In this document: positions 34,357 to 46,721 of the stretch, piece by piece
Numbering within the stretch: position 1 is the stretch's first letter
Layout of the letters: every line of letters starts with the position of its first letter
From: an uncultured delta proteobacterium
GTDB lineage: Bacteria; Desulfobacterota; Desulfobaccia; Desulfobaccales; 0-14-0-80-60-11
Assembly (NCBI GenBank): GCA_963709285.1
Contig: CAVPVR010000002.1
Span: 65,491-129,490 of the forward strand
Direction of reading: 5' to 3'
DNA: 64,000 nt
Made by a program: the position numbers and the translations under genes
Notes under the pieces: model-generated
Told to the model about the DNA's origin: nothing
What the model saw: the letters and a program-made list of their open reading frames with translations, nothing else
Databases searched by the model: none

Positions 34357-35211
34357 ATGAAAACGTTGGTCCACAAGCGTGAAACCAGAAGCGCCATTGA
34401 ATTGACCCTCCGGATGTACCAGGAGCTGGTAGAGCTGCGCCTGGACAAAACGGCCTGCCTCAAGTGCGAGGTCTGCTCCCTGGTCTGCCCTCGGGGGGCG
34501 GTGGCCGTCACGCCTGCTGACGAGGGCCTGGATATCACCATTGATCCCCGCGTCTGCGTGCTCTGCGAAATTTGCGCCCACTTTTGCCCTACAGGAGCGG
34601 TGAGCTTGAGGCTCAACGGCGTCCCCAAGACTATTTTATTCGACCATCTGGGTCTGGCGGCCTTTTTGGACAAGATCAGGATGGACAAGGAAAGGTGCAC
34701 CGAGCCCTGCCCCCAGGATGAAAAAGGGCAGGAGCACTGGTGCCGGCAGCAGCTGAAGCTGGTGGGAGGCCTGCTCACGGAGTGCCCCAAACACTGCCAC
34801 AAGTGCCTGACTGTGTGCCCCCGTCAGGCCATTGTCCTGGACCCGGAGGGCCTGCACACCATGCCCGAGCCCGACCTGTGCCTGCGCTGCACCCAATGTC
34901 TCTCGGTGTGTGAACAGGAAGCCCTGGCGGTCAACCCCCAGTTCACTGGCGACCTTGACATTGACGACAGCAAGTGCCCGCCGGACTGTATGCTGTGCAT
35001 CGAAGCCTGTCCCGTTAAGGCCATCGTGCGGGAAGGGGAGCGGGTCTACCGGAAGTTAGAAACTTGCAGCTACTGTGGGGTGTGCTACAACATTTGTGAT
35101 TACGAAGCCGTTAGCCTAACCCGGCGGCAGGTGGTGGCCCTCAAGGGGGAATTTTCCCAAGCCTGGGAAGAGGCGGTGAACCGGCTCCTCTCCCGGGAAA
35201 TGGTTCGATAA
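34357..35211 (+). CDS. Polyferredoxin (six 4Fe-4S-type motifs; MvhB/FwdF-like)
   Basis: CLKCEVCSLVCP, CVLCEICAHFCP, CHKCLTVCP, CLRCTQCLSVC, CMLCIEACP, CSYCGVCYNIC. Confidence 0.8.
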   Translation: MKTLVHKRETRSAIELTLRMYQELVELRLDKTACLKCEVCSLVCPRGAVAVTPADEGLDITIDPRVCVLCEICAHFCPTGAVSLRLNGVPKTILFDHLGLAAFLDKIRMDKERCTEPCPQDEKGQEHWCRQQLKLVGGLLTECPKHCHKCLTVCPRQAIVLDPEGLHTMPEPDLCLRCTQCLSVCEQEALAVNPQFTGDLDIDDSKCPPDCMLCIEACPVKAIVREGERVYRKLETCSYCGVCYNICDYEAVSLTRRQVVALKGEFSQAWEEAVNRLLSREMVR

Positions 35212-35235
35212 GTTGCGTTAAGCAAAAAGGCGTTT

Positions 35236-37599
35236 GTGGAACCTGAACTTCGCATCGGCTTATATATCTGTCACTGCGGCCTCAATATCGCCGGGGTCAT
35301 CAGTCCGGAGGCCCTGTCGGTTCAGGGGCAGGGGCTCCCTGAGGTGGCGGTCAGTCGCCATCATTTGTACACCTGCTCCGAAGCCGGCCAAGCCGAGATT
35401 CTGAAAGACATCAAGCACTTTAAGCTTGATCGGGTGGTTATTGCCGCCTGTTCACCCAAGCTTCATGAAGTCACCTTCCGCCGGCTGCTGTCGGAAGCGG
35501 GGCTGAATCCCTACCTGGTGGAAATGGTGAACATCCGGGAGCACTGCGCCTGGGTGCACGCCGGGGAGCCGGAGGCGGCCCAGGAAAAGGCGTTGGAGCT
35601 CATCCGCATGGGGCTAGCCAAGGCGTGTCTGGCGGTCCCCTTGCAAGACCGCCAGGTGCCCATGACCAGGCATGCCCTGGTTATTGGCGGAGGCCCAGCG
35701 GGACTGCGAGCCGCCCTCGATATTGCCCATGCCGGCTACCCCGTAACCCTGGTGGAACGGGAGCCCATCCTAGGGGGCATGGCCAACCGGCTGCATCGCA
35801 CCTTTCCCCGGGGGGAAAGCGCCCTGGCCCTGATCAATCCCCTCATGGCTGCGGTGGCCCTGCATCCCGGCATCCAGGTGCTCACCCAGAGCGAGGTCAC
35901 CGAGGTGAGCGGGCATTTGGGGGAGTTTGCCGTCACGGTGCGGGAGACCCTGCCCCTGGTGGGGGAGGCCTGCGACCGCTGTGGGCACTGTGCTGAGGTC
36001 TGTCCGGTGGTGGTTCCCGATACCGTGGCCGCAGGTCTTGGCACCCGGACTGCCATCTATCTGCCGGCCCCCCATGCTTTTCCCGGCCGCTATGTGGTGG
36101 ATCTGGAGCACTGCGACCGCTGCGGCGAGTGTATAGCTGCCTGTCCCCAGGAGGCCATCAGCCTGGAGGAAGGGGAACGAGAGCATCACCTCACCGTGGG
36201 GAGCATCGTGGTGGCCACGGGCTTCACTCTCTTTGATACGGCGGGGAGCCGCTATGAGAACTGGGCTGACCATCCGGGAGTTGTCACCACGGTGGCCCTG
36301 GAGCGCCTTCTGGCGGGGGCAGGACCCACCCAGGGAAAGGTAAGCCTTGCCGATATTCCAGAAGAGGTGCGGGATGTGGCTTTTCTGCTGTGCGTGGGCT
36401 CCCGGGAGGAGGAGGGCAACCGTTACTGCTCCCGGGTGTGCTGCCCCACGGCCTTGAAGCAGGCCCTGGAGCTGAAAAAACGCCTCCCGGAGGCCCGCAT
36501 TCGTATCTATTACCGGGACATCCGCACCAACAAAAAAGACTGGGAGGCCCTTTACACCGAGGCCCGGGAAGCGGGGGTGCTGTTTTTGCGGGGGCGGGTG
36601 GAGGAAGTAAAAGCCGCCCAAGATGGGGGCCTGCTCATTCGTGCCTTTAACGAGACCTTTCAGGTTCCCACCGAAGACCGGGTGGACCTGGCGGTCCTGG
36701 CCGTGGGCATGGTCCCCGGGAACGGCGCCGCTCTCCGGGAGGTGTTGAAGCTGCCGGTGGGACCGGACGGCTTTTTCATGGAGGCCCACCCCAAGCTCAA
36801 GCCCCTGGAGACGGTGCTGGACGGCATTTTTCTGGCCGGGGCCTGTCAGGGTCCCAAGGACCTGGCCGAATCCTTCACCCAAGGAAGCGGCGCGGCCGCC
36901 AAGGTTCTGGCCCTCTTTGCCCACGAGACCATCACCCTGGACGGCCTGGTGGCCCAGGTGGACCCGGAGGTCTGTGTGGGCTGCGGGGAATGCGCGGCAG
37001 CCTGTCCGTTTCAGGCCATGGAGATGGTGGGGGAGGAAGAAAAGCAGCAGGCCCAGGTAGTTACTGCAGCCTGCAAGGGCTGTGGGGTCTGCGCCGGCGC
37101 CTGTCCTACGGGGGCGGTCATCCCCGCGGGGTTTACGGACGAGATGATCCTGGCTCAGATCGACGAGGCCTTGGCGGAGGCTCCGGAACAGAAAATTTTG
37201 GCCTTTTGCTGCAACTGGTGCTCTTATGCCGGGGCGGACTTCGCCGGGGTGTCGCGGCTGGCCTATCCCCCCCAAGTGCGCATTATCCGAACCATGTGCT
37301 CTGGCAGGATTCACCCCAAGTTTATCCTCCATGCGTTTGAGCGGGGCGCCGGCCAGGTTTTGATCTCCGGTTGCCACCCTCCGGGGGAATGCCATTATAT
37401 TTCTGGAAATCTTAGGGCTCAGGAGCGGGTGGAAAAGCTCCGGCCCAAACTTGCCAAAAAAGGCATCGACCCTTCCCGCCTGCGGCTGGCGTGGGTTTCA
37501 GCCACGGAAGGGAGGGCATTTCAACGGGTCATTGAAGAAATGGCCGCGGCCCTGGAGCCTGAAGAGACGGTCAAACAAGCGAGCGGTCAGGGGAAATGA
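35236..37599 (+). CDS. hdrA: HdrA-like flavoprotein fused to a C-terminal MvhD-like domain
   Basis: LYICHCGLNIAG N-terminal cluster, VIGGGPAGLRAAL FAD motif, CVGSRE, ferredoxin motifs, and a C-terminal ILAFCCNWCSYAGAD...ISGCHPPGECHY (MvhD signature). GTG start. Confidence 0.85.
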   Translation: MEPELRIGLYICHCGLNIAGVISPEALSVQGQGLPEVAVSRHHLYTCSEAGQAEILKDIKHFKLDRVVIAACSPKLHEVTFRRLLSEAGLNPYLVEMVNIREHCAWVHAGEPEAAQEKALELIRMGLAKACLAVPLQDRQVPMTRHALVIGGGPAGLRAALDIAHAGYPVTLVEREPILGGMANRLHRTFPRGESALALINPLMAAVALHPGIQVLTQSEVTEVSGHLGEFAVTVRETLPLVGEACDRCGHCAEVCPVVVPDTVAAGLGTRTAIYLPAPHAFPGRYVVDLEHCDRCGECIAACPQEAISLEEGEREHHLTVGSIVVATGFTLFDTAGSRYENWADHPGVVTTVALERLLAGAGPTQGKVSLADIPEEVRDVAFLLCVGSREEEGNRYCSRVCCPTALKQALELKKRLPEARIRIYYRDIRTNKKDWEALYTEAREAGVLFLRGRVEEVKAAQDGGLLIRAFNETFQVPTEDRVDLAVLAVGMVPGNGAALREVLKLPVGPDGFFMEAHPKLKPLETVLDGIFLAGACQGPKDLAESFTQGSGAAAKVLALFAHETITLDGLVAQVDPEVCVGCGECAAACPFQAMEMVGEEEKQQAQVVTAACKGCGVCAGACPTGAVIPAGFTDEMILAQIDEALAEAPEQKILAFCCNWCSYAGADFAGVSRLAYPPQVRIIRTMCSGRIHPKFILHAFERGAGQVLISGCHPPGECHYISGNLRAQERVEKLRPKLAKKGIDPSRLRLAWVSATEGRAFQRVIEEMAAALEPEETVKQASGQGK

Positions 37600-39218
37600 T
37601 AACCAAGACCCAAGTTCTCTTGTGCGCCTGCCCGGACCTCAAGGTGGAGGTCCAGAACTTGGCCCAACGCCTCTCCCAGGCCGGGCTGAGGGTCGAAGTA
37701 TCCCCGCCTCTCTGCACCCCCGCGGGTTTGGAGGAATGGGGGCCACGCCTGACGGCCGAACCCCGGGAGTGGCTGGTGGCCGCGTGCGGACCGGCACAGC
37801 ATCACGGCCTTTTTCAACGTCTGGCCGGGGATGAACCTCTGGCCATGGTGGATCTCCTAGCCGCAGACGATCTGGAAAGCGCTGTGGCAGCCGTCCTCCT
37901 GGCCCAAAAGGAGGAAATTCGCCTGGTTTCCGCGGGCGCACCCCACAGCCGGGAGGTGCTGGTGGTGGGGGGCGGGGTGGGGGGCTGTCAGGCCGCCCTG
38001 GACCTGGCCAATGCCGGTTTCAAGGTACATCTGGTGGAATCCTCCCTCTCCATCGGTGGCACCATGGCCCAGTTGGACAAGACCTTTCCCACGCTGGACT
38101 GCTCCATCTGCATCCTGGGACCCAAGCTGGTGGAAGCCGCGGCCCACCCCTTGATTGAGCTCCTCACCTTTGCGGAAATCACCGGCATTTCCGGCCAGGC
38201 CGGGCGATTTACGGTGGATGTGACCCTGAAGCCCCGCTATGTGGACATGAGCCGGTGTGTGGGCTGCGGCAGTTGCGTCCAGGTCTGCCCGGTCATTGTT
38301 CCCAGTCGCTGGAACCTGGGGCTCAAGTCCCGCAAGTGCATCCGCATCATTTTTGCGCAGGCGGTGCCCCTTATGGCCACTATCGAAAAAGAATACTGCA
38401 TCGACTGCCAGATGTGCCTTGAGGCCTGTGAACACGGGGCCATTCACCCTTTGTCCCGCCCGGAGGAACGGCGCCTCGAGGTGGGGGCGGTGGTTCTGGC
38501 TACCGGGGCCCGGCCCTTTGACCCGGCCATTCAGAGTGAATACAGTTATGGCCGTCTCCCCGGGGTCCTCACCAACCTGGAGTTCGAGCGCCTGGTGTGC
38601 GCCACCGGTCCTACTCAAGGACATCTCCTGACCCCCGCCGGGCAACCGGTGAAGCGTCTGGCCTTCATCCAGTGTGTGGGCTCCCGGGACCGGCGCTTCC
38701 TGCCCTACTGCTCGGGCTACTGCTGCACTGCGGCCATCAAGCAGGCCATGCTGACCCTGGAGCATGAACCCGACGCCGAGGTCACCATCTTTTTCAACGA
38801 CATCCGCACGTCGGGGAAGGGCTTCGAGGAACTCTATTTGCGGGCCCAAGCCGCGGGAGTGCGCTTTACTAAAGGTCTGCCGGGGCGTATCGAGGCGGGG
38901 GAGGCTGGCAGCCTCATAATCATTTATGAAGATCAGCAAGGCGGCCAGCGGGGCCGTCTGCCCGTGGACCTGGCGGTCCTGTCCGTAGGCCTGACCGCAC
39001 CCCGGGAGGGACTCCCCTTCACAGAGATCGGGCCGGTGCGGGACAACCTGGGATTTTATGACAGCCGGCACCCGATCCTTCATCCCCTGGAGTCCACGGT
39101 GCCGGGAGTCTTTCTGGCCGGCACCGCCCAGGGGCCCCGGGATATTTCTGAAACGGTGTGCACCGGCAGCGGGGTTGCGGCCCGGATCATCAACCTGCTC
39201 AATTCTCTGCCCCAGTAG
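37596..39218 (+). CDS. hdrA: HdrA-like flavoprotein (third paralog, with a distinct N-terminal extension)
   Basis: VVGGGVGGCQAAL, DKTFPTLDCSICIL, CVGCGSCVQVCP and IQCVGSRD motifs. Its start overlaps the upstream stop (ATGA). Confidence 0.8.
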   Translation: MITKTQVLLCACPDLKVEVQNLAQRLSQAGLRVEVSPPLCTPAGLEEWGPRLTAEPREWLVAACGPAQHHGLFQRLAGDEPLAMVDLLAADDLESAVAAVLLAQKEEIRLVSAGAPHSREVLVVGGGVGGCQAALDLANAGFKVHLVESSLSIGGTMAQLDKTFPTLDCSICILGPKLVEAAAHPLIELLTFAEITGISGQAGRFTVDVTLKPRYVDMSRCVGCGSCVQVCPVIVPSRWNLGLKSRKCIRIIFAQAVPLMATIEKEYCIDCQMCLEACEHGAIHPLSRPEERRLEVGAVVLATGARPFDPAIQSEYSYGRLPGVLTNLEFERLVCATGPTQGHLLTPAGQPVKRLAFIQCVGSRDRRFLPYCSGYCCTAAIKQAMLTLEHEPDAEVTIFFNDIRTSGKGFEELYLRAQAAGVRFTKGLPGRIEAGEAGSLIIIYEDQQGGQRGRLPVDLAVLSVGLTAPREGLPFTEIGPVRDNLGFYDSRHPILHPLESTVPGVFLAGTAQGPRDISETVCTGSGVAARIINLLNSLPQ

Positions 39219-39297: not shown

Positions 39298-39672
39298 ATG
39301 TCGGATATTCAGATAAAACCGGAAGAACAACCGAAAAAATTACAAAAACCCTTGCCCCTGGTCCTGGAGATCATTCCCGGGCAGGCCGGGGAGGGGCTCG
39401 TGGTGGTAATGGAGCCAGGGAGCTACGAGGGCAGCACCCTGAGGGAGCTCTGTGATCAGGCTTTGAGCCGCCCCGACTTCAGCATCGAGGAGCGCCAGAT
39501 TTTAGAGGACATCCAGCGGCAGCTTCAGGGTGGCAAGCTCCTTTGCCAGGGCCGGGACCTCGACGGACCCGCCCAGGTCTTCGGAACCGTTGAGGAGACG
39601 GAAGCCGGGGAGGCTTATCTTTATGTGCCTGTCCGGGCCATCAAGCCTCAGGAGGGGGGCCTCTTCCCTTAA
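39298..39672 (+). CDS. Ubiquitin-like (beta-grasp) protein candidate with C-terminal GG followed by LFP
   Basis: 124 aa from the ATG at 39298, with a GGAAAGG RBS 8 nt upstream. It shows a beta/alpha alternation compatible with a beta-grasp fold, ends ...YLYVPVRAIKPQEGG-LFP, and sits in an operon with E2-like, JAB and E1 genes. Confidence 0.5.
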   Translation: MSDIQIKPEEQPKKLQKPLPLVLEIIPGQAGEGLVVVMEPGSYEGSTLRELCDQALSRPDFSIEERQILEDIQRQLQGGKLLCQGRDLDGPAQVFGTVEETEAGEAYLYVPVRAIKPQEGGLFP

Positions 39673-39675
39673 GGA

Positions 39676-40878
39676 ATGGGAACGGGAGCGGGGATGTGGA
39701 GGTGTTTTGAAGCCGACCTGGAAATCCTGGTGCACCGGGGCCACCTGTACCTTCCCCTGGTTTTAGATCCAGAGATCAACCAGGAGATTCAGGCCCCGAT
39801 TTCCCCAAGTTATTCGTGGGATCAATCGCCCGGCGGGCTCAGCCGTTCACCGGTGCCTACGGTCCTGGCTGTCCTGGATAGATGGTTCGTCCAGGCGGTG
39901 AGCGCTTCCTCCCTGGTTGACAACTACGCCCAGCTTTTTCCCCAAGACCACGAAGACCGCCGGCGGACTCTCCGTGAACAATACTCTCTGACCGCGGACC
40001 TCTTTGGGGTGGCCCTGGACCCCCACCTGGTCGCCATCGTTTTTCACATTTTACCCCATTTTCTCAGGCGGGATGGATTTCAGAGACGGCGGCGCTTACA
40101 GGAGGGGGAGGTCCTGGATTTCATCCGGGAGCGAGTCCAGGTGCCCCACTACTTCGACCAACAAGCGCGGAGTTTCCTGGATGTCAATCCTCTGAAGGAG
40201 GCCCTCCGGCGCCTGGAAACCGTTCATCTTGAGCCCAAACCACCTCCAGAGGGATTGGTGCCGGCAGCCGATCTGGGGGCCTGGTGGGAGGAGGTCCTAA
40301 CAGCCCAACTTCTGGCCGAGGAGCGCAACCGCCTCTTCCAGGAGATCGAGGAACGGGAGCACTGGGCCACGGCTCAGGAAAGTCGTCTGGCGGTTCTGCT
40401 CTATTTAGCTCAAAAAGGGTCCCTGGAACTGGACGGCTTCGGGTTCTCCCGGATGAGGCGGGGCCAGGATTACCGGGTTTACAAGCGCACCGGGCCCTAT
40501 GCCCTCCAGGACTTTTATGGCCATTTGTACCTCTTCCCGGATTGCCGGGTGGCGGTCACCACTTTGGGGCGCCTGCGGCCCGTGGTGGTGGATCACTATA
40601 AGCACCCGTTCCTGAGAAGGTACGCTTCTGGCCAGGAAATCTGCATAGGTCCCGAAAGCAGTAATCTTTCTTTTTCGGCAAAAAACGCCATCCAGGTCCT
40701 GGAGGAAGGGATCAACGCGCTCTTGTACAGCTACGACGGCCGGCACCGCGCCGGCTACCACAGACTGTTTGTGCTGCCGGGGATGATGCGACTGGTGGAC
40801 TTCGAAGACATTCGCATCCCGAAGGACCACCCCCTCATCGTCTCAGGGAAAGTGGAAGTGAAGAACCGGGCCACCTGA
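39676..40878 (+). CDS. E2/UBC-like protein candidate with a large N-terminal extension
   Basis: The C-terminal region YLFPDCRVAVTTLGRLRPVVVDHYKHPFLRRYASGQEICIGPES...AIQVLEEGINALLY mirrors the UBC layout (FP..., HPN-like HPF, G-x-x-I-C-[LI], following helix). The candidate catalytic Cys323 codon is at 40642-40644. Confidence 0.45.
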   Translation: MGTGAGMWRCFEADLEILVHRGHLYLPLVLDPEINQEIQAPISPSYSWDQSPGGLSRSPVPTVLAVLDRWFVQAVSASSLVDNYAQLFPQDHEDRRRTLREQYSLTADLFGVALDPHLVAIVFHILPHFLRRDGFQRRRRLQEGEVLDFIRERVQVPHYFDQQARSFLDVNPLKEALRRLETVHLEPKPPPEGLVPAADLGAWWEEVLTAQLLAEERNRLFQEIEEREHWATAQESRLAVLLYLAQKGSLELDGFGFSRMRRGQDYRVYKRTGPYALQDFYGHLYLFPDCRVAVTTLGRLRPVVVDHYKHPFLRRYASGQEICIGPESSNLSFSAKNAIQVLEEGINALLYSYDGRHRAGYHRLFVLPGMMRLVDFEDIRIPKDHPLIVSGKVEVKNRAT

Positions 40879-40879
40879 C

Positions 40880-41287
40880 ATGGACCTTAAGGACTCTTTT
40901 CGCCGGGACCGGCTTCGGGGGAAGGAGAAGGAGCCCTGGGCCCCCTCCCTGTTCTCTCAGGTCGGAGGGCTGGTGCGGCGTCATCGACTGGGAGAGGCAT
41001 TTTGTCAGCTTCTCGGGCAGATGACTACGGCAAGTGCGGAAACCTTAGCGCAGACCCACCGATCTGCTCCCAAGGCCCCTTTCGAGCCACCCCTGTTTTT
41101 TTTGGCCACCGCAGAGGATTATCAGGTGATTCAGAAAATTCTCTCGGGCCTAAACAACCCCTACCTGGCTTGGGCCTGCAGTCCGGAGGAAATTCTTCTG
41201 TCGCCAACCCTGTGGAGCCGGCGTCCCGGCCTTGACCCAGAGGTGCTGGCCACCCACCACTTTGCGGCGTTGCTTTTACATGATTAA
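40880..41287 (+). CDS. Hypothetical protein of the Ubl operon
   Basis: 135-aa ORF starting 1 nt after the upstream stop. No family recognised. Confidence 0.5.
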
Positions 41288-41340: not shown

Positions 41341-41364
41341 CTGTTCACATCACAAGGAGTACTC

Positions 41365-42468
41365 ATGCCGAATGGCATAACTGATGAGAAGCGGCGGCGC
41401 CTCGAAGAAAAGATGGAGCAGTTTCGGGAACGTCAGATAGACGAGGCGGTGCAGCACATCCTTGAATTCGACAAGACTCCTACGACCCTGAAGGCCGAAG
41501 TGGACCGGTTCGTCATCGGCCAGGAGAAGGGGAAAAAGATTATCGCCACGGCCATCGCGTTCCATTATAAGCGGCTGGGTGCCGCGTTGAAGCGCACCTT
41601 GGGAGAACACAACGGCAGCATCGAGAGCGCCCTCAAGAGCACCCGTACCCCCAAGGCCAACATCCTCATGGTGGGTCCCACCGGGTGCGGCAAGACCTAC
41701 ACCAGCGAGACCGCCTCGGAGCTGGTGGGGGTGCCCTTCGTGGTAGAGGACATGACCAAGTTCAGCGAGGTGGGCTACGTGGGCATGAATGTCAGCGACA
41801 TCCTGGTGGACCTCCTCATCTCCGGAGACGGCAACCCGAATGTGGCCCAGATGGGTATCGTCTACCTGGACGAAGTTGACAAGATTGCCGCCGAGACCTC
41901 CACCGTCCGGGATGTTTCGGGGAAGGGAGTCCAGAAGGGTCTTCTCAAGCTGGTGGAGGGGGTGGACAACACCCTGGAGATCGGCAAGGAGCGTTTCTCT
42001 CTTTCCACCAAGCACGTGCTGTTTATTGCCGGGGGGGCTTACGACAGCCTGGAAGGCATCGTCAGGAAGCGCCTGGCCCGCCTGAATGTGACGGGCGACT
42101 GGCGGGACCACCTGGCCACCGAGGACCTGGTTTCCTTCGGTATGGAGCGCCAGCTTGTGGGCCGCTTCCCGGTCCGGGTGGTGTATGATCGCCTCACCAC
42201 CCAGGAACTCCAGGACATCCTGACCAAGAGCGCCGACAGTCCCCTCCGGGCTTACGTCCAGGACCTGGAAAGCTGGGGCATCGACCTGAAATACACCGAG
42301 GAGGCCCTGGGGGAGATCGCCCGCCGGGCCAAGCGGGAGGGCACCGGGGCCCGGGGACTGGTGGGCATCCTCCACCGGGTGCTGCTCGAGGACATGTTCC
42401 GCCTACCCGGCAACTACACGGGAGAGCTCATGATGGACGGAGCCTACATCCGGGAGAAACTGGGATGA
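41365..42468 (+). CDS. ClpX-like AAA+ unfoldase lacking the Zn-ribbon, RKH and IGF (ClpP-docking) elements
   Basis: VIGQEKGKK, Walker A GPTGCGKT, pore loop GYVG, Walker [30 protein letters not shown], and sensor region GARGL. There is no N-terminal C4 domain and no GIGF motif. A CAAGGAG RBS precedes the ATG at 41365. Confidence 0.85.
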
Positions 42469-43262
42469 GGTTCAAGGCCCTCAAGGACCTGAGCCGGACG
42501 GCGCCCCAGGAGATTGTGCTGGCCTCTCTCCCGGAGCAGGTCCTGATGACGGACTTTGCCAAAGCCAAGGCCTTTGCGGTGAGTGAACTGGTGCGCCGGG
42601 TGCATGGGGAGGCGTTCGAGTGGTACGGCTTCACCCTGGCGGAGCGGGCCCGGCCGGAGGTCATCGTGGATGTGGGGCTTCCCGAAAACGACGAGAACCA
42701 GGAGACTTACACCAGCATCAGCCCGGAACGTATTGCAGCTTACCAGGAAACCCTACCGGCCGGGCAGATAATCAACGGCTGGCTCCACTCCCACGGCGCT
42801 CTGGAGTACCGTCAGTTCTCCCCGGTGGACGACCTCAACCAGGCGACGGTGCTGGACTACGTCACTTCCCTGCTCAAGATGCCCGTGGCCAAAAAGGAGG
42901 TGGTGATCCGGGATTTGACCTTCCTGTTGTTGGATGAGGAGGAGGCCGCAATCCAGGCCGCAGGCAGCGTCACCCTCCTCACCGATGTGCCGGTGGGCCG
43001 GGCCAAACTCCTGGAGACCATTTATGGGGGCTTCTGCTTCGGCATGGTCATCGGTGACAAAGGCTGGACCAAACAGGAGATCCATTACAAAACCCGGGGC
43101 GTCCTCACCGGCGAGACCCTGGTGAGCAAACGGGAAGCCGACCTGACCCTGGTGGCAACCGGGAAAAACCTCACGACCTCGGACCTGGAGGCCCTGGAAC
43201 TGGAGGTCAAGGAACGTATCCGACCCATTACCTATACCCCGGAAAAGCTGGAGCGGGGGTAG
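42465..43262 (+). CDS. JAB/MPN+ (JAMM) metalloprotease-like protein
   Basis: Upstream Glu (GEAFEWYGF) and [18 protein letters not shown] (H-x-H-x8-S-x2-D, one residue longer than the canonical x7), encoded at 42786-42830. Its start overlaps the clpX-like stop (ATGA). Confidence 0.7.
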
Positions 43263-43432: not shown

Positions 43433-44431
43433 ATGATTGAGTCTTGCGTATGGCGCCGCCTTTGTCGTCCCGAGGTTGGGATTCCGAACTCGATAAGTGA
43501 TCTGATTGCCCGGGAAGAATGGCTGAAAGGGGATTTTTTAACTTCCGTACGTATGGGGCCAACACTATTTATAGCGAGTGATTATGGTGGAGCGCACAAG
43601 GGTGCTGTATATGAGACCCTCTCGTTTCTCATGGCCGACTTGACATATGTTTGGTTATTTGACGAATTGCGTACAAAGCTACGCAATGAAGCGGTTCTAA
43701 AAAGTCGCCGTATGGCATACAAATCTTTAGGCGACCGTCGGAGACAAGAAGCACTTGTGCCGTTTCTTCGATCGGGTAACACGATCCCGGGACTTCTAAT
43801 GAATATTGTATTAGATAAAAACGCCTCCCAATTACTTTCAGAATCCTATCAACCTAAATTTGCCTTTGGCGAACTTAGCCATTGGTGTAAAGGGTCCTTT
43901 GAAAAACTCACGCGCGTTGGACAACTGGGAGCGATGCTTGTTGAGGGAATGTGCGCTCCAGGTCAGAATGTATTATGGATTTCTGACGAAGATGAGATAG
44001 CGCCAAACAGAGAGAAGTTGTTTGAGGCAACTAACGTTTTAGGCCATTACCTGAATCATTTCTGTTCTAATCAGATGGGGCACATGAGATTTGGAACTAC
44101 AAACGTGGACAATGGCAACCTCCGAATTGAAGATCTTGTCGCGCTCGTTGATCTTGCAGCTGGATGCCTCTCGGAGATCTTTACGCAAACGATGAAACTG
44201 TTTGGAAGCCCTGCAAGCAAAATCCTTATACCTGGGACGCACTCGTCATCTAAGAAAGCAAGAATTATTGCAAATTGGATGGCCCAGGGTAATCATCCTC
44301 TGAAGAAGCTAATCGTGTTGGTTGAAGCTCAAAATAATTCTTATATCACGAAAGTCGTAAACTTTTATCCAGAAGGCACAACAAACATTTTCGACTGGGT
44401 AGCCGATTTCGAGGAGTTGCTCAGAAATTGA
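43433..44431 (+). CDS. Hypothetical protein on a low-GC insertion
   Basis: 332-aa ORF, visibly AT-richer than its neighbours and preceded by a 170-bp AT-rich spacer. No family recognised. Confidence 0.6.
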   Translation: MIESCVWRRLCRPEVGIPNSISDLIAREEWLKGDFLTSVRMGPTLFIASDYGGAHKGAVYETLSFLMADLTYVWLFDELRTKLRNEAVLKSRRMAYKSLGDRRRQEALVPFLRSGNTIPGLLMNIVLDKNASQLLSESYQPKFAFGELSHWCKGSFEKLTRVGQLGAMLVEGMCAPGQNVLWISDEDEIAPNREKLFEATNVLGHYLNHFCSNQMGHMRFGTTNVDNGNLRIEDLVALVDLAAGCLSEIFTQTMKLFGSPASKILIPGTHSSSKKARIIANWMAQGNHPLKKLIVLVEAQNNSYITKVVNFYPEGTTNIFDWVADFEELLRN

Positions 44432-44497
44432 CTACTTCTAACTCTTTGAATTGTTTGACGTTTTAATATGTTAGCATCTTAGCGTTAGAATGTGAGT

Positions 44498-44728
44498 ATG
44501 AAGAATTCACCGAAACGAGCCACCATCTACTTCGAATCCGACCTGCACCGGGCCTTACGGGTGAAGGCGGCGGAGGTGGGCCAGTCGATGTCCGAACTGG
44601 TCAATCAGGCGGTGAAGCTTTCCTTGGCCGAGGACGCTAAGGATATAGCGGCCTTCGAGGAGCGCCAGCACGAACCCAGCCTGCCCTTTGAGGACGTCCT
44701 GAAAGACCTCAAGATAGGGAAGGGCTGA
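44498..44728 (+). CDS. Ribbon-helix-helix (CopG/antitoxin-like) protein, orphan
   Basis: KRATIYFESDLHRALRVKAAEVGQSMSELVNQAV is a typical RHH beta-strand plus two helices. No adjacent toxin ORF is seen. Confidence 0.7.
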   Translation: MKNSPKRATIYFESDLHRALRVKAAEVGQSMSELVNQAVKLSLAEDAKDIAAFEERQHEPSLPFEDVLKDLKIGKG

Positions 44729-44852: not shown

Positions 44853-45041
44853 ATGGCAGAGCATTGGTGTAAAACCTGCTTTTTCAGAGGCCAATATGAC
44901 AAAAACCCCCAGTCATTGTTGGGGAGATTGTGGAAATGGCATGCCAACTGGTGCCCGGGCTGGAAATCCTACATGAGATCCATCCCGGATGAGGAACGCC
45001 TGGAATTAGCCGAAAAATATGATTTACCCAAATTCAGGTGA
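44853..45041 (+). CDS. Hypothetical small CxxC protein
   Basis: 62 aa reading MAEHWCKTCFFRG...WCPGW, with an AAGGAG RBS upstream. It is bracketed by inverted family A repeats. Confidence 0.45.
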   Translation: MAEHWCKTCFFRGQYDKNPQSLLGRLWKWHANWCPGWKSYMRSIPDEERLELAEKYDLPKFR

Positions 45042-45218: not shown

Positions 45219-46721
45219 GTGACCTTGCCTGAAAACACCTATTTATCCCGGGATGAAGCAACTCCGGACGAGCGCCTGGACCGGCAGGTGCGCATTCCGG
45301 GGTGGAACCAGGAGGCGTTGGCCCAGGCCCGGGTGGGGGTGGTGGGAGACGACCCCTGGCTCACTGGCCTGGTGGTGACTTCGGCTGCGGCCCTGGGAAT
45401 CAACCGGCTGACGGTGGTGGCCCCGGACCTGGACCCCCGCTTGCTCTCGGCGACCCGGGGGCTTAATCCGGAGTTCAACCTTGCCTGGTTCCCAGGCTTT
45501 TTCAGCCATTCCCTCCTGGAGGACCTGCTCCGGGAATGCACCGTCCTGATTGACCTGGGCCACCACGGCCTGGCCACCAAGCTCCTCCTCAATCTGGCCC
45601 AAAGGAAAGGTCTCCCCCTGGTGCGGGCGTCTGACTTTGAGGAGGATGGGGTGGCGGGCCTCAGGCTCTTCACCTATCAGCCAGGCCGGGAATGGCGGGA
45701 ACTCCTGGAAGTGCTTCCTCAAGCCCAACTTCCTTCCCGGTGTCAGGGCGACCCGGTGCTGGCTCTGGTCACGGTGGGGCTGGTTCTCGAGGAAACCAAA
45801 AAGCTCCTCCTGGGGGAGGCGGTAACACCGGAGGTGATCTCATACTCTCGGGCCAGCTTAAAGACATTTAATTTGAGGGAGAGGGCTAGGGGCCGTGAGC
45901 CCCTACCCCCTCCCTCAAACTCCCTCCCCCAACCCCTTAAGGGGGAGAGAAATGCTGTAAAGTCGGGGCAAGCTGCCCCGACTTTACAAGCACATTGCGG
46001 GATGGGAGGGGGGCTTGATGGGAAGAAAGGGACCGGTAGCATGGGCTTCCAGCCCGTGGCACCCTGGCCTTACCCTCATGAGCTCATTTTTCTGGATTCC
46101 CCCATCGCGGTGGTGGGCGCCGGGGCCCTGGGGAACTTTGTGGCGTTGGGGTTGGCCGCTCTGGGCTTCACCCGCCTCACCTTTATCGATCCGGACCCGG
46201 TGGAGGTCACCAATCTGAACCGTCAGGTTCTCTTCTGGGACGCCGTGGGACAGCCCAAGGCCGAGGCGTTAGCAGAAAAAATCAAGGAGTGGTTCGGGGT
46301 GGCGGTCAGGGCTGACACGACATACATCACCCGGGAGACTGACTTGCGCGAGTTTGCCGTGGTGTTCGACTGCACGGACAATTTTGCCAGCCGCATTATC
46401 CTGAGCGAAAAGTGCCGGGAATATGGCCAAATCCTCATCAGCGGCGGCACCGGGGTGGAGGCCGGACAGGTAGTGGTCTTCGACCCCGCGCAAGGCGGCC
46501 CCACCCCCGCAGAGCTTCTGGGGCTTTATGACATCGTGGGACAGCGTGACATCGACGTCAAAGAGCGGGAACGGGCCTCCTGCGTCTATGCCCCTGAAGC
46601 CGCCATAATCATGACCAACCAGATCGTCGGGGGCCTTATGGTGGACACCCTGAGAAGACTGCTTACGGGAGAGCCGGCACCCAACCTCTTCTACGACGCC
46701 CGGAGTGAAAGGATGATTTAG
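45219..46721 (+). CDS. E1-like (ThiF/MoeB/UBA family) activating enzyme with a degenerate N-terminal and an intact C-terminal adenylation domain
   Basis: The C-terminal half, IAVVGAGALGNFVALGLAALGFTRLTFIDPDPVEVTNLNRQVLF...FDCTDNFASR, is a classic ThiF fold. The N-terminal half has a Rossmann-like layout but a degenerate loop (VGVVGDDPWLTG). GTG start. Confidence 0.8.
   Translation: MTLPENTYLSRDEATPDERLDRQVRIPGWNQEALAQARVGVVGDDPWLTGLVVTSAAALGINRLTVVAPDLDPRLLSATRGLNPEFNLAWFPGFFSHSLLEDLLRECTVLIDLGHHGLATKLLLNLAQRKGLPLVRASDFEEDGVAGLRLFTYQPGREWRELLEVLPQAQLPSRCQGDPVLALVTVGLVLEETKKLLLGEAVTPEVISYSRASLKTFNLRERARGREPLPPPSNSLPQPLKGERNAVKSGQAAPTLQAHCGMGGGLDGKKGTGSMGFQPVAPWPYPHELIFLDSPIAVVGAGALGNFVALGLAALGFTRLTFIDPDPVEVTNLNRQVLFWDAVGQPKAEALAEKIKEWFGVAVRADTTYITRETDLREFAVVFDCTDNFASRIILSEKCREYGQILISGGTGVEAGQVVVFDPAQGGPTPAELLGLYDIVGQRDIDVKERERASCVYAPEAAIIMTNQIVGGLMVDTLRRLLTGEPAPNLFYDARSERMI
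45873..46062. repeat. G/C-tract hairpin repeat modules inserted in frame inside the E1 gene
   Basis: TTGAGGGAGAGGGCTAGGGGCCGTGAGCCCCTACCCCCTCCCTCAAACTCCCTCCCCCAACCCCTTAA matches the intergenic element at 57548-57616. It also contains the hairpin AAAGTCGGGGCAagcTGCCCCGACTTT and a GGCTTCCAGCCCGTGGCAC motif. Confidence 0.7.

Follow-up and report, generated by a model that had tools for sequence, protein, structure and literature searches.

A ClpX-derived AAA+ ATPase without ClpP-docking elements in a conserved gene cluster for putative ubiquitin-like conjugation in Desulfobacterota and DPANN archaea

Introduction

In the eukaryotic ubiquitin-proteasome system, the defining step is the hand-off of a tagged protein to an AAA+ motor, at whose pore Rpn11 takes the tag off. 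Cdc48 sets a precedent for unfolding that is directed by ubiquitin and has no protease attached. The tagging of bacterial proteins by ubiquitin-like (Ubl) modifiers has, to our knowledge, been linked until now either to phage defence (CBASS, Bil and Bub) or to the transfer of sulfur, and we know of no case with a dedicated unfoldase. Here we analyze a ClpX-like AAA+ ATPase encoded among putative Ubl-conjugation genes in a stretch of 64,000 nucleotides, hereafter the window, from an uncultured delta proteobacterium of the Desulfobaccales (GenBank assembly GCA_963709285.1, contig CAVPVR010000002.1, positions 65,491 to 129,490 of the forward strand). The genes of the cluster are, in the order of the window, pro-Ubl, a 394-amino-acid (aa) E2-like protein, a 135-aa helical protein (p135), the ClpX-like ATPase, a JAMM peptidase and a tandem-domain E1.

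The ATPase resembles ClpX and HslU in its Walker A and B motifs, GYVG loop, RDVSGxGVQ region, arginine finger, GARGL motif and ClpB_D2-small lid. In contrast to ClpX, the clade to which it belongs has no zinc-binding N-domain, no RKH or IGF loop and no clpP or hslV nearby; it sits in a Ubl/E1/JAMM operon and is found also in DPANN archaea. Rpt1-6/Rpn11 and PAN/SAMP/HvJAMM1 also combine an AAA+ translocase with a JAMM isopeptidase by which a diglycine-linked modifier, made by an E1 or by an E1 and an E2, is taken off; such a pairing is predicted here from the overlap of the genes. However, the ATPase described here comes from the ClpX/HslU branch and not from the classical AAA proteins, and it is accompanied by neither an OB ring, an HbYX tail, a 20S particle nor any other chambered peptidase. 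A small tag that is served by its own AAA+ unfoldase and by an enzyme for tag removal also recalls Pup-Mpa/ARC-Dop of Actinobacteria and Cdc48/p97. The likeness is one of functional analogy only, since the tag chemistry (Pup ligase versus E1/E2), the ATPase family and the de-tagging family are unrelated.

Compared by description, the predicted parts list is the same as that of BilABCD, with an unfoldase and p135 in addition. The differences are that the E2-like protein is 394 aa long with large extra domains, that p135 and the ClpX-like protein are integral to the cluster, and that the genomic context is of the housekeeping type. No mention of an AAA+ partner or of a ClpX relative was found in the accessible parts of the Bil and Bub accounts (PMC11601596, PMC10557695). 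In the literature searched, which includes Iyer et al. 2006 and was read partly in excerpt, with subscription-only papers outside its coverage, a Ubl operon that encodes a ClpX-like ATPase is likewise not described.

Results

The ATPase retains the ClpX motor

A sequence-only reading of the window had described the ATPase as a ClpX paralog with similarity running through the whole AAA+ module. The similarity is borne out by a full-length alignment to ClpX structures with an E-value of 3e-59, whereas the term paralog would presuppose a canonical clpX elsewhere in the genome, and all of the motif strings quoted in that reading are present in the translated open reading frame (ORF). The best matches in the PDB are the ClpX of Helicobacter pylori and other bacterial ClpX proteins (E 3e-59 to 1e-50), followed by mitochondrial CLPX and then by HslU (4e-36). 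The Pfam domains found are AAA_2 (E 6e-21), AAA and ClpB_D2-small. Among the NCBIfam models the ClpX model PRK05342 (E 3e-79) stands ahead of that of HslU (6e-49), and the equivalog cutoffs are missed, with 266.8 bits versus 359 for PRK05342 and 235.3 versus 370.75 for TIGR00382. The identity of clade members to Escherichia coli ClpX is 31-40%. The window protein has 367 residues, and its orthologues have 366-371 in nearly all cases.

To define the conserved motifs, 48 clade members (the window protein and 47 orthologues) were aligned with E. coli ClpX. The GYVG loop, the GARGL motif and the arginine of the arginine finger are invariant. The Walker A and B motifs are near-invariant, with variation at single non-catalytic positions, and the RDVSGxGVQ pore-2 region is retained. 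A segment of 13 residues on the N-terminal side of Walker A is missing in E. coli ClpX; it is present in H. pylori ClpX and is therefore not peculiar to the clade. Its motifs place the ATPase in the HCLR clade of AAA+ proteins, as a ring subunit derived from ClpX, and predict an intact motor.

The ClpX interfaces are lost and no protease gene is nearby

Three ClpX elements had been described as missing or reduced, and the alignment agrees on each of them. There is no counterpart of E. coli ClpX residues 1-60, which hold the C4 zinc domain. In its place are approximately 45 cysteine-free N-terminal residues, of which residues ~8-35 look like a charged helix when the sequence is read by eye rather than with a prediction tool. 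The segment of the RKH loop is shortened to 13 residues versus 20 in E. coli ClpX, and the RKH tripeptide itself is gone. The segment of the IGF loop has 14 residues versus 29 in E. coli, a loss of at least 15 residues, and contains no [ILMV]-G-[FL] tripeptide; one tryptophan is its sole invariant residue.

RKH loops are known to grip degrons of the ssrA type, and IGF loops bind to hydrophobic pockets of ClpP (PMC9035409). Because the loop that is known to bind these pockets is deleted, the docking of ClpP is predicted to be lost. The alignment thus indicates that the clade has lost all three ClpX interfaces: the zinc domain, to which adaptors bind, the RKH loop, which contacts degrons of the ssrA type, and the IGF loop, which docks ClpP. 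Its members are mostly labeled "ClpX" at JGI and "AAA family ATPase" at NCBI. Judged from these sequence features, the clade should not carry the ClpX annotation that JGI gives to most of it.

A cryptic IGF loop was also considered and rejected: in the 48-member alignment the segment is a short connector in which the tryptophan alone is invariant. The same alignment procedure readily reveals IGF, IGL or MGF in more distant homologues.

The expectation that no clpP gene lies nearby was likewise upheld, as tblastn with E. coli ClpP finds none in the 64-kb window. The possibility that the clade is normally encoded beside clpP finds no support either, since the same search found no ClpP in 54 related loci, each with at most 8-10 kb of flanking sequence. 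The tblastn search with E. coli HslV returned nothing in the window or in these loci. A proteasome-docking tail of the HbYX type is also missing from the ATPase, the C-terminus of which reads ...REKLG.

The ATPase belongs to a conserved gene cluster

A one-genome-per-species scan gave 51 loci, to which contig look-ups added five, three of them before the survey, in which the window proteins were compared by tblastn with 54 loci. The bacterial hosts of the cluster belong to Desulfobaccales, Syntrophobacterales and Desulfobacterales, with one metagenome-assembled genome (MAG) each from Binatia and Nitrospiraceae, and the archaeal hosts are the DPANN lineages Woesearchaeota, Nanoarchaeota, Pacearchaeota and Aenigmatarchaeota. 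The identity to the window ATPase across phyla ranges from 53 to 97%, the nearest copies being those of Desulfobacca-type MAGs (87-97%) and the archaeal copies being 53-59% identical. In a neighbour-joining tree, which is distance-based and has E. coli ClpX as its single outgroup, the DPANN copies are basal to a monophyletic bacterial group; given such a tree, the direction of transfer is not read from it.

The JAMM gene lies directly 3' of the ATPase gene in 52 of 52 loci in which the contig is long enough. The overlap of the ATPase stop with the JAMM start, pointed out in the sequence-only reading, is the ATGA at 42465-42468, and the same 4-nt overlap is found in all bacterial loci with both genes intact except L044, where there is a 1-nt gap and the ClpX-like ORF seems truncated. 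In the archaeal loci the two genes overlap by up to 8 nt or lie up to 2 nt apart. Wherever ~3.5 kb or more of sequence is available upstream, the Ubl gene was found, and there it is the first gene of the cluster. In 39 of the 54 loci the flank that was fetched includes an E1-like match, which lies either right after the JAMM gene (Desulfobaccales and archaea) or right before the Ubl gene (other orders).

A minimal version of the cluster is at L001:9543-11901 (CP070692.1), where only the Ubl-like, ClpX-like and JAMM genes are present, with no E2-like, p135 or E1 gene within 10 kb. Since this locus keeps only these three, the trio of Ubl, ATPase and JAMM suggests itself as the functional core. 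The earlier expectation that an unfoldase of this kind would have operon partners agrees with what the sequences indicate: a modifier of the Ubl type is encoded together with an E1 and, probably, an E2.

The JAMM peptidase and the pro-Ubl

The gene downstream of the ATPase had been assigned to the JAB/JAMM family, and the assignment holds: the residues E52, H108-x-H110, S119 and D122 do not vary among 27 orthologues. The spacer of the zinc site is x8, compared to x7 in the standard H-x-H-x(7)-S-x(2)-D motif. The Prok-JAB family PF14464 gives weak matches, under the gathering score, in 16 of the 27 members (best E 6.7e-5). The family profile aligns its catalytic motif with that of a Caldiarchaeum Rpn11-like protein, and the hhalign comparison of the family to three known JAMM sequences (P 6.5e-5) places all of the catalytic residues in register. 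On this sequence evidence, the 265-aa protein is accepted as a putative JAMM enzyme. No function is assigned to its C-terminal ~130 residues. Among the bacterial JAMM proteins, the extreme C-terminus is also conserved, as P-x-E-x-[ILVM]-E-R-M, and the N-terminus is invariant, as M-R-x-x-x-L. Either terminus may serve in docking to the ATPase.

The small protein encoded at the start of the cluster begins with ~17 variable residues, which lead into a conserved core, the sequence AIKPQEGG and a tail. In 39 of 40 aligned copies the motif K/E-P-Q/E-E-G-G precedes a tail that is not conserved and measures 1 to ~30 residues, the copy of L014 being the one that diverges at the GG end. BilA is a precursor modifier of which the diglycine is exposed by a peptidase, as described in PMC10557695. 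The GG followed by a variable tail is, from the sequence, the signature of a putative precursor modifier with a diglycine to be exposed by a peptidase. From this C-terminus and from the operon we infer the label Ubl.

The E1, the E2-like protein, p135 and p62

Residues 293-488 of the E1 match Pfam ThiF with an E-value of 8.6e-39. In an alignment of the E1 family with E. coli MoeB, the GxGxxG, NRQ and DxxDN motifs and the cysteine of the RASC motif are conserved and the N-terminal half is degenerate. The best matches among the NCBIfam models are ThiF and MoeB, every one under the cutoff. BilD and the eukaryotic E1s combine an inactive and an active adenylation domain in a single chain (PMC11601596). 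The E1 of the cluster is, as judged from these motifs, a predicted single-chain tandem of the same inactive-plus-active kind as BilD. The window E1 has an insertion of ~85 aa of low complexity in the linker between its adenylation domains, which is shorter or absent in the rest of the family. A perfect hairpin with a 16-bp stem, CTGTAAAGTCGGGGCAAGCTGCCCCGACTTTACAA, is located within this insertion (window 45955-45989) and may be the in-frame insertion of a small palindromic element.

In the E2-like protein, N-terminal domains and a long helix precede a C-terminal domain that carries an HPF...C motif. Residues Y302, H304, P305, Q314 and C317 are invariant, forming the motif Y-K-H-P-F-x8-Q-x-I-C, which is preceded by Y-L-F-P-D-C-R-V-A-V. 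As read from the sequence, it resembles the HPN...C segment at the active site of E2 enzymes. No Pfam domain or other family match was found for this protein. Its AlphaFold2 (AF2) model has a predicted local distance difference test (pLDDT) score of 78.5. A Foldseek search of the PDB with the model gave nothing significant; about 24 of the top 42 matches are E2/UBC enzymes, with E-values of 0.5-4 and template modeling (TM) scores of 0.27-0.37. The hhalign comparison to six E2s placed HPF..C on HPN..C with P 0.1.

The AF2 model of p135 is all-alpha (pLDDT 84.9; predicted TM score, pTM, 0.76), with no fold neighbour in the PDB (best E 2.0) and no Pfam match. Except for L001, the protein is kept in every bacterial locus of which the contig covers that position. 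In DPANN loci, proteins of 400-500 aa are found in the position of p135 (L042:6718-7926, L049:3598-4953 and L046:6287-7783). The protein in L046 shares 28% identity with p135 at its N-terminus and has no Pfam match over the rest of its length.

The cysteine-rich p62 has tblastn matches in only seven loci, all of the Desulfobaccales type, and no Pfam match, and its membership of the system is uncertain. Searches of Pfam, NCBIfam and the PDB with the Ubl, E2-like, p135 and JAMM proteins gave nothing significant beyond the weak Prok-JAB/Rpn11-like matches of the JAMM protein. No PADLOC model matches any of these four proteins; the E1 has generic E1-E2 matches there, and the ATPase has AAA matches at the level of weak noise. 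The positions of the genes and motifs are listed in Table 1.

Table 1. Genes, signals and motifs of the cluster, with positions in the window
Feature	Position	Strand	Remark
Pro-Ubl-like modifier, 124 aa	39298..39672	+	Mechanical ORF starts at TTG 39280
Pro-Ubl: PQEGG of C-terminal ...AIKPQEGG	39646-39660	+	Followed by 3-residue tail LFP
E2-like protein, 394 aa	39694..40878	+	Mechanical ORF starts at 39676; most homologues start MWRC.., 394 aa
E2-like protein: Y-K-H-P-F...Q-x-I-C motif	40603-40644	+	
p135, 135-aa helical protein	40880..41287	+	Directly 5' of the ATPase gene
Shine-Dalgarno sequence AAGGAG	41354..41359	+	5 nt 5' of ATG 41365; direct reading of the sequence
ClpX-like AAA+ unfoldase (predicted), 367 aa	41365..42468	+	ORF with ATG 41365 and stop TGA 42466-42468
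ClpX-like protein: charged, helix-like N-terminal segment	41386-41469	+	Sequence reading only
ClpX-like protein: Walker A (GPTGCGKT)	41674-41697	+	
ClpX-like protein: GYVG pore-1 loop	41773-41784	+	
ClpX-like protein: Walker B (IVYLDEVDK)	41857-41883	+	
ClpX-like protein: pore-2 region (RDVSGxGVQ)	41908-41961	+	
ClpX-like protein: shortened RKH equivalent	41962-42000	+	
ClpX-like protein: stub equivalent to IGF loop	42070-42108	+	13 residues
ClpX-like protein: Arg finger (GRFP)	42160-42174	+	
ClpX-like protein: sensor-2 GARGL	42346-42360	+	
JAMM/JAB metallopeptidase-like protein, 265 aa	42465..43262	+	Start overlaps the ATPase stop (ATGA)
JAMM protein: catalytic Glu (EWYG)	42618-42629	+	
JAMM protein: HSH-x8-S-xx-D motif	42786-42830	+	
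p62, Cys-rich 62-aa protein (MAEHWCKTCFF...WCPGW...)	44853..45041	+	Between the JAMM and E1 genes
E1-like activating enzyme, 500 aa	45219..46721	+	Pfam ThiF
E1: degenerate N-terminal adenylation-like domain, motif VGVVGDD	45333-45353	+	
E1: active ThiF domain	GAGALGN 46116-46136; TNLNRQ 46209-46226; DCTDN 46368-46382	+	
E1: conserved Cys in RASCVY	46572-46589	+	

Genes around and within the cluster

A scan of the operon for promoters and terminators gave a number of sites not above that in shuffled sequence. The neighbours of the clusters are housekeeping or metabolic genes: hdr-like genes, coenzyme A (CoA) transferases, cytochrome oxidase, Tat and two-component regulators. Directly upstream of the cluster in the window (34357-39218) is a block of heterodisulfide-reductase-like, FlpD and ferredoxin-domain genes, which is found also at L002 and L056. 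This hdr-like block is shared with loci in which the ATPase is just 68% identical, and its place beside the cluster may be plain synteny or a functional tie to redox metabolism.

In the window, a 332-aa ORF without family match (43433-44431) and a 78-aa ORF that resembles an antitoxin of the ribbon-helix-helix (RHH) type (44492-44728) lie between the JAMM gene and the genes for p62 and the E1. The 332-aa gene is missing from all 54 related loci and the GC content falls to 0.53-0.55 across the stretch 43433-44728; the two genes are therefore likely a recent insertion and not parts of the system.

The wider ClpX-like family

A wider search covered 1.84 billion cluster representatives. It returned further proteins without zinc domain and IGF loop that keep a "DW" stub, at 38-51% identity (P0321, P0323, P0324, P0326, P0328, P0329, P0332 and P0335-P0337); ClpX proteins with an IGF motif are more distant than this set. 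P0329 is a divergent member with a C-terminal extension of 170 residues. A protein of 1238 aa, P0320, consists of three tandem ClpX-like AAA+ modules, none of them with an IGF motif. No relatives were found on viral contigs.

A metagenome scan with P0335, the most divergent of the IGF-less representatives, found nothing. The scan with P0329 yielded two short contigs, L057:1877-5812 and L058:269-3197, in which a divergent, IGF-less ClpX-like protein (44% identity; 563 aa, with two repeated helical modules at the C-terminus) follows a tandem-ThiF E1 and a 270-aa protein. Two ThiF stretches were detected in the E1 of L057. The contigs are low in GC and are probably archaeal, because a PAC2 proteasome-chaperone gene is nearby. 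As the contigs found with the divergent P0329 carry an E1, the link to systems of the E1 type appears to reach deeper than the core clade, whereas the set of six genes as a whole is confined to it.

Discussion

A proposed role for the ATPase

Based on the comparisons described above, we read the ATPase, with a confidence slightly better than even, as a putative ClpP-independent unfoldase that serves a six-gene Ubl-conjugation system and is paired with a deconjugating JAMM peptidase. In such a system, the JAMM peptidase would cut the variable tail of the pro-Ubl so that the Gly-Gly is exposed. The E1 would then adenylate the exposed glycine and hand the Ubl by cysteine thioesters to the E2-like protein, by which it would be joined to target proteins. 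The ClpX-like hexamer would recognize the marked proteins through its N-terminal charged helices and/or through p135, which would replace the zinc domain; the ring may also engage the disordered N-terminal tail of the Ubl, as Mpa does with Pup. The marked proteins would be unfolded or extracted without degradation, the ring acting as a segregase or remodeller. The JAMM protein, placed at the pore in the way that Rpn11 sits on the Rpt ring, would strip the Ubl and recycle it.

In its fullest form the proposal amounts to a proteasome cap without a proteasome: a ClpX-derived hexamer with a JAMM protein at its pore that would act on an E1/E2-conjugated Ubl, as a housekeeping system of Desulfobacterota and DPANN archaea independent of the PAN/Rpt lineage. 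We put this form forward tentatively, with clearly less than even confidence.

Several observations weigh against the proposal. The pro-Ubl has no match in Pfam or among the PDB sequences, and its hhalign comparisons to ubiquitin, NEDD8 and SUMO and to ThiS and MoaD gave no informative match, so that a beta-grasp fold is unconfirmed. The 394-aa protein is a probable E2, for which the similarities of the model and profile do not reach statistical significance (E of 0.5 or more with Foldseek, P 0.1 with hhalign). An E1 was not found at L001 and L056 (within 10 kb on either side) or at L012 (6-7 kb fetched on each side), and no JAMM or Ubl gene is detectable on the contigs L057 and L058. The one observation that points to a physical pairing of the ATPase with the JAMM protein, and to the stoichiometric ATPase-deubiquitinase pair predicted in the sequence-only reading, is the overlap of their genes. 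The word deubiquitinase would moreover presuppose that the small protein is a beta-grasp Ubl. It is also conceivable that a protease is encoded elsewhere and docks by another interface.

Alternative explanations

The ATPase and the JAMM peptidase could instead form a maturation or activation machine that acts on the Ubl itself and controls the supply of active modifier. The ring would grip the variable C-terminal tail or the disordered N-terminus of the pro-Ubl and offer the Gly-Gly junction to the peptidase, or would unfold the Ubl and recycle it from E1 or E2 adducts. The minimal locus L001, which holds the Ubl, ATPase and JAMM genes alone, fits with such a role, as do the longer of the variable Ubl tails (the range is 1 to ~30 residues), which would be usable as pore-initiation segments, and JAMM pre-processing of bacterial Ubls is known for BilC and BubCD (PMC10557695, PMC11601596). 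However, known JAMM enzymes cut Ubl tails without an ATPase, some of the tails have 1-3 residues and are too short for an AAA+ pore, and an ATP-driven hexamer would be costly for one cut. We consider this explanation unlikely.

The absence of ClpP, HslV or any other peptidase gene from the 54 loci, where the JAMM isopeptidase is the sole peptidase conserved in the cluster, makes it quite unlikely that the Ubl is a degradation tag and that the ring feeds the marked proteins to an unlinked peptidase through a new interface. Such an arrangement would be the analogue of Pup-Mpa-20S and SAMP-PAN-20S, and the analogy with the Pup/Mpa and SAMP-proteasome systems speaks for it. The invariant tryptophan in the IGF stub, or the bacterial C-terminus [KR]-E-[KR]-L-G, could serve for docking; yet the IGF loop is cut to a connector of ~6 residues and there is no HbYX motif.

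An anti-phage or conflict system of the Bil type with a recruited unfoldase, for instance one that tags and then dismantles phage structural proteins, appears improbable to us. The parts themselves (Ubl, E2-like protein, JAMM and tandem E1) match BilABCD as given in PMC11601596. The E1 matches the PADLOC E1-E2 models of the CBASS Cap2 type and, weakly, the NCBIfam model 6A-MBL cap2_3, and the unrelated 332-aa gene and the RHH antitoxin-like gene are inserted inside the cluster of the window. In contrast, none of the Ubl, E2-like, p135 and JAMM proteins is matched by a PADLOC model, and viral contigs yielded no relatives. The neighbours are metabolic and in conserved synteny, with the hdr-like genes upstream in the window, at L002 and at L056, and the proteins are highly conserved across orders and domains, unlike typical defence genes.

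That the GG-ended protein is a thiocarboxylate carrier of the ThiS/MoaD/CysO/QbsE type in a sulfur-carrier or cofactor pathway, with the ATPase as a mere accessory chaperone, is very improbable: a GG with a tail, a JAMM protein and a ThiF-type E1 also typify sulfur-carrier operons (PMC1779556), and the E1 has its best NCBIfam matches, below the cutoffs, in ThiF/MoeB models, but the cluster has no sulfurtransferase, rhodanese, cysteine synthase, MoaE or ThiG, its E1 is an inactive-plus-active tandem like the protein-conjugating E1s, and it includes an E2-like protein with an invariant cysteine as well as an unfoldase.

Implications

The analysis defines a sizeable clade that is now mis-annotated, and ClpX-family ATPases exist in DPANN archaea. 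If the ATPase is indeed a ClpP-independent unfoldase for Ubl-marked proteins, the operon would be an independent invention, or a relic, of the hand-off from tag to motor. Should the form with a JAMM protein at the pore of a hexamer that has no proteasome be true, then tagging, ATP-driven unfolding and co-translocational de-tagging would have arisen at least twice. The system would consist of six small soluble proteins, and would be compact enough for the reading and removal of a tag to be reconstituted in vitro.

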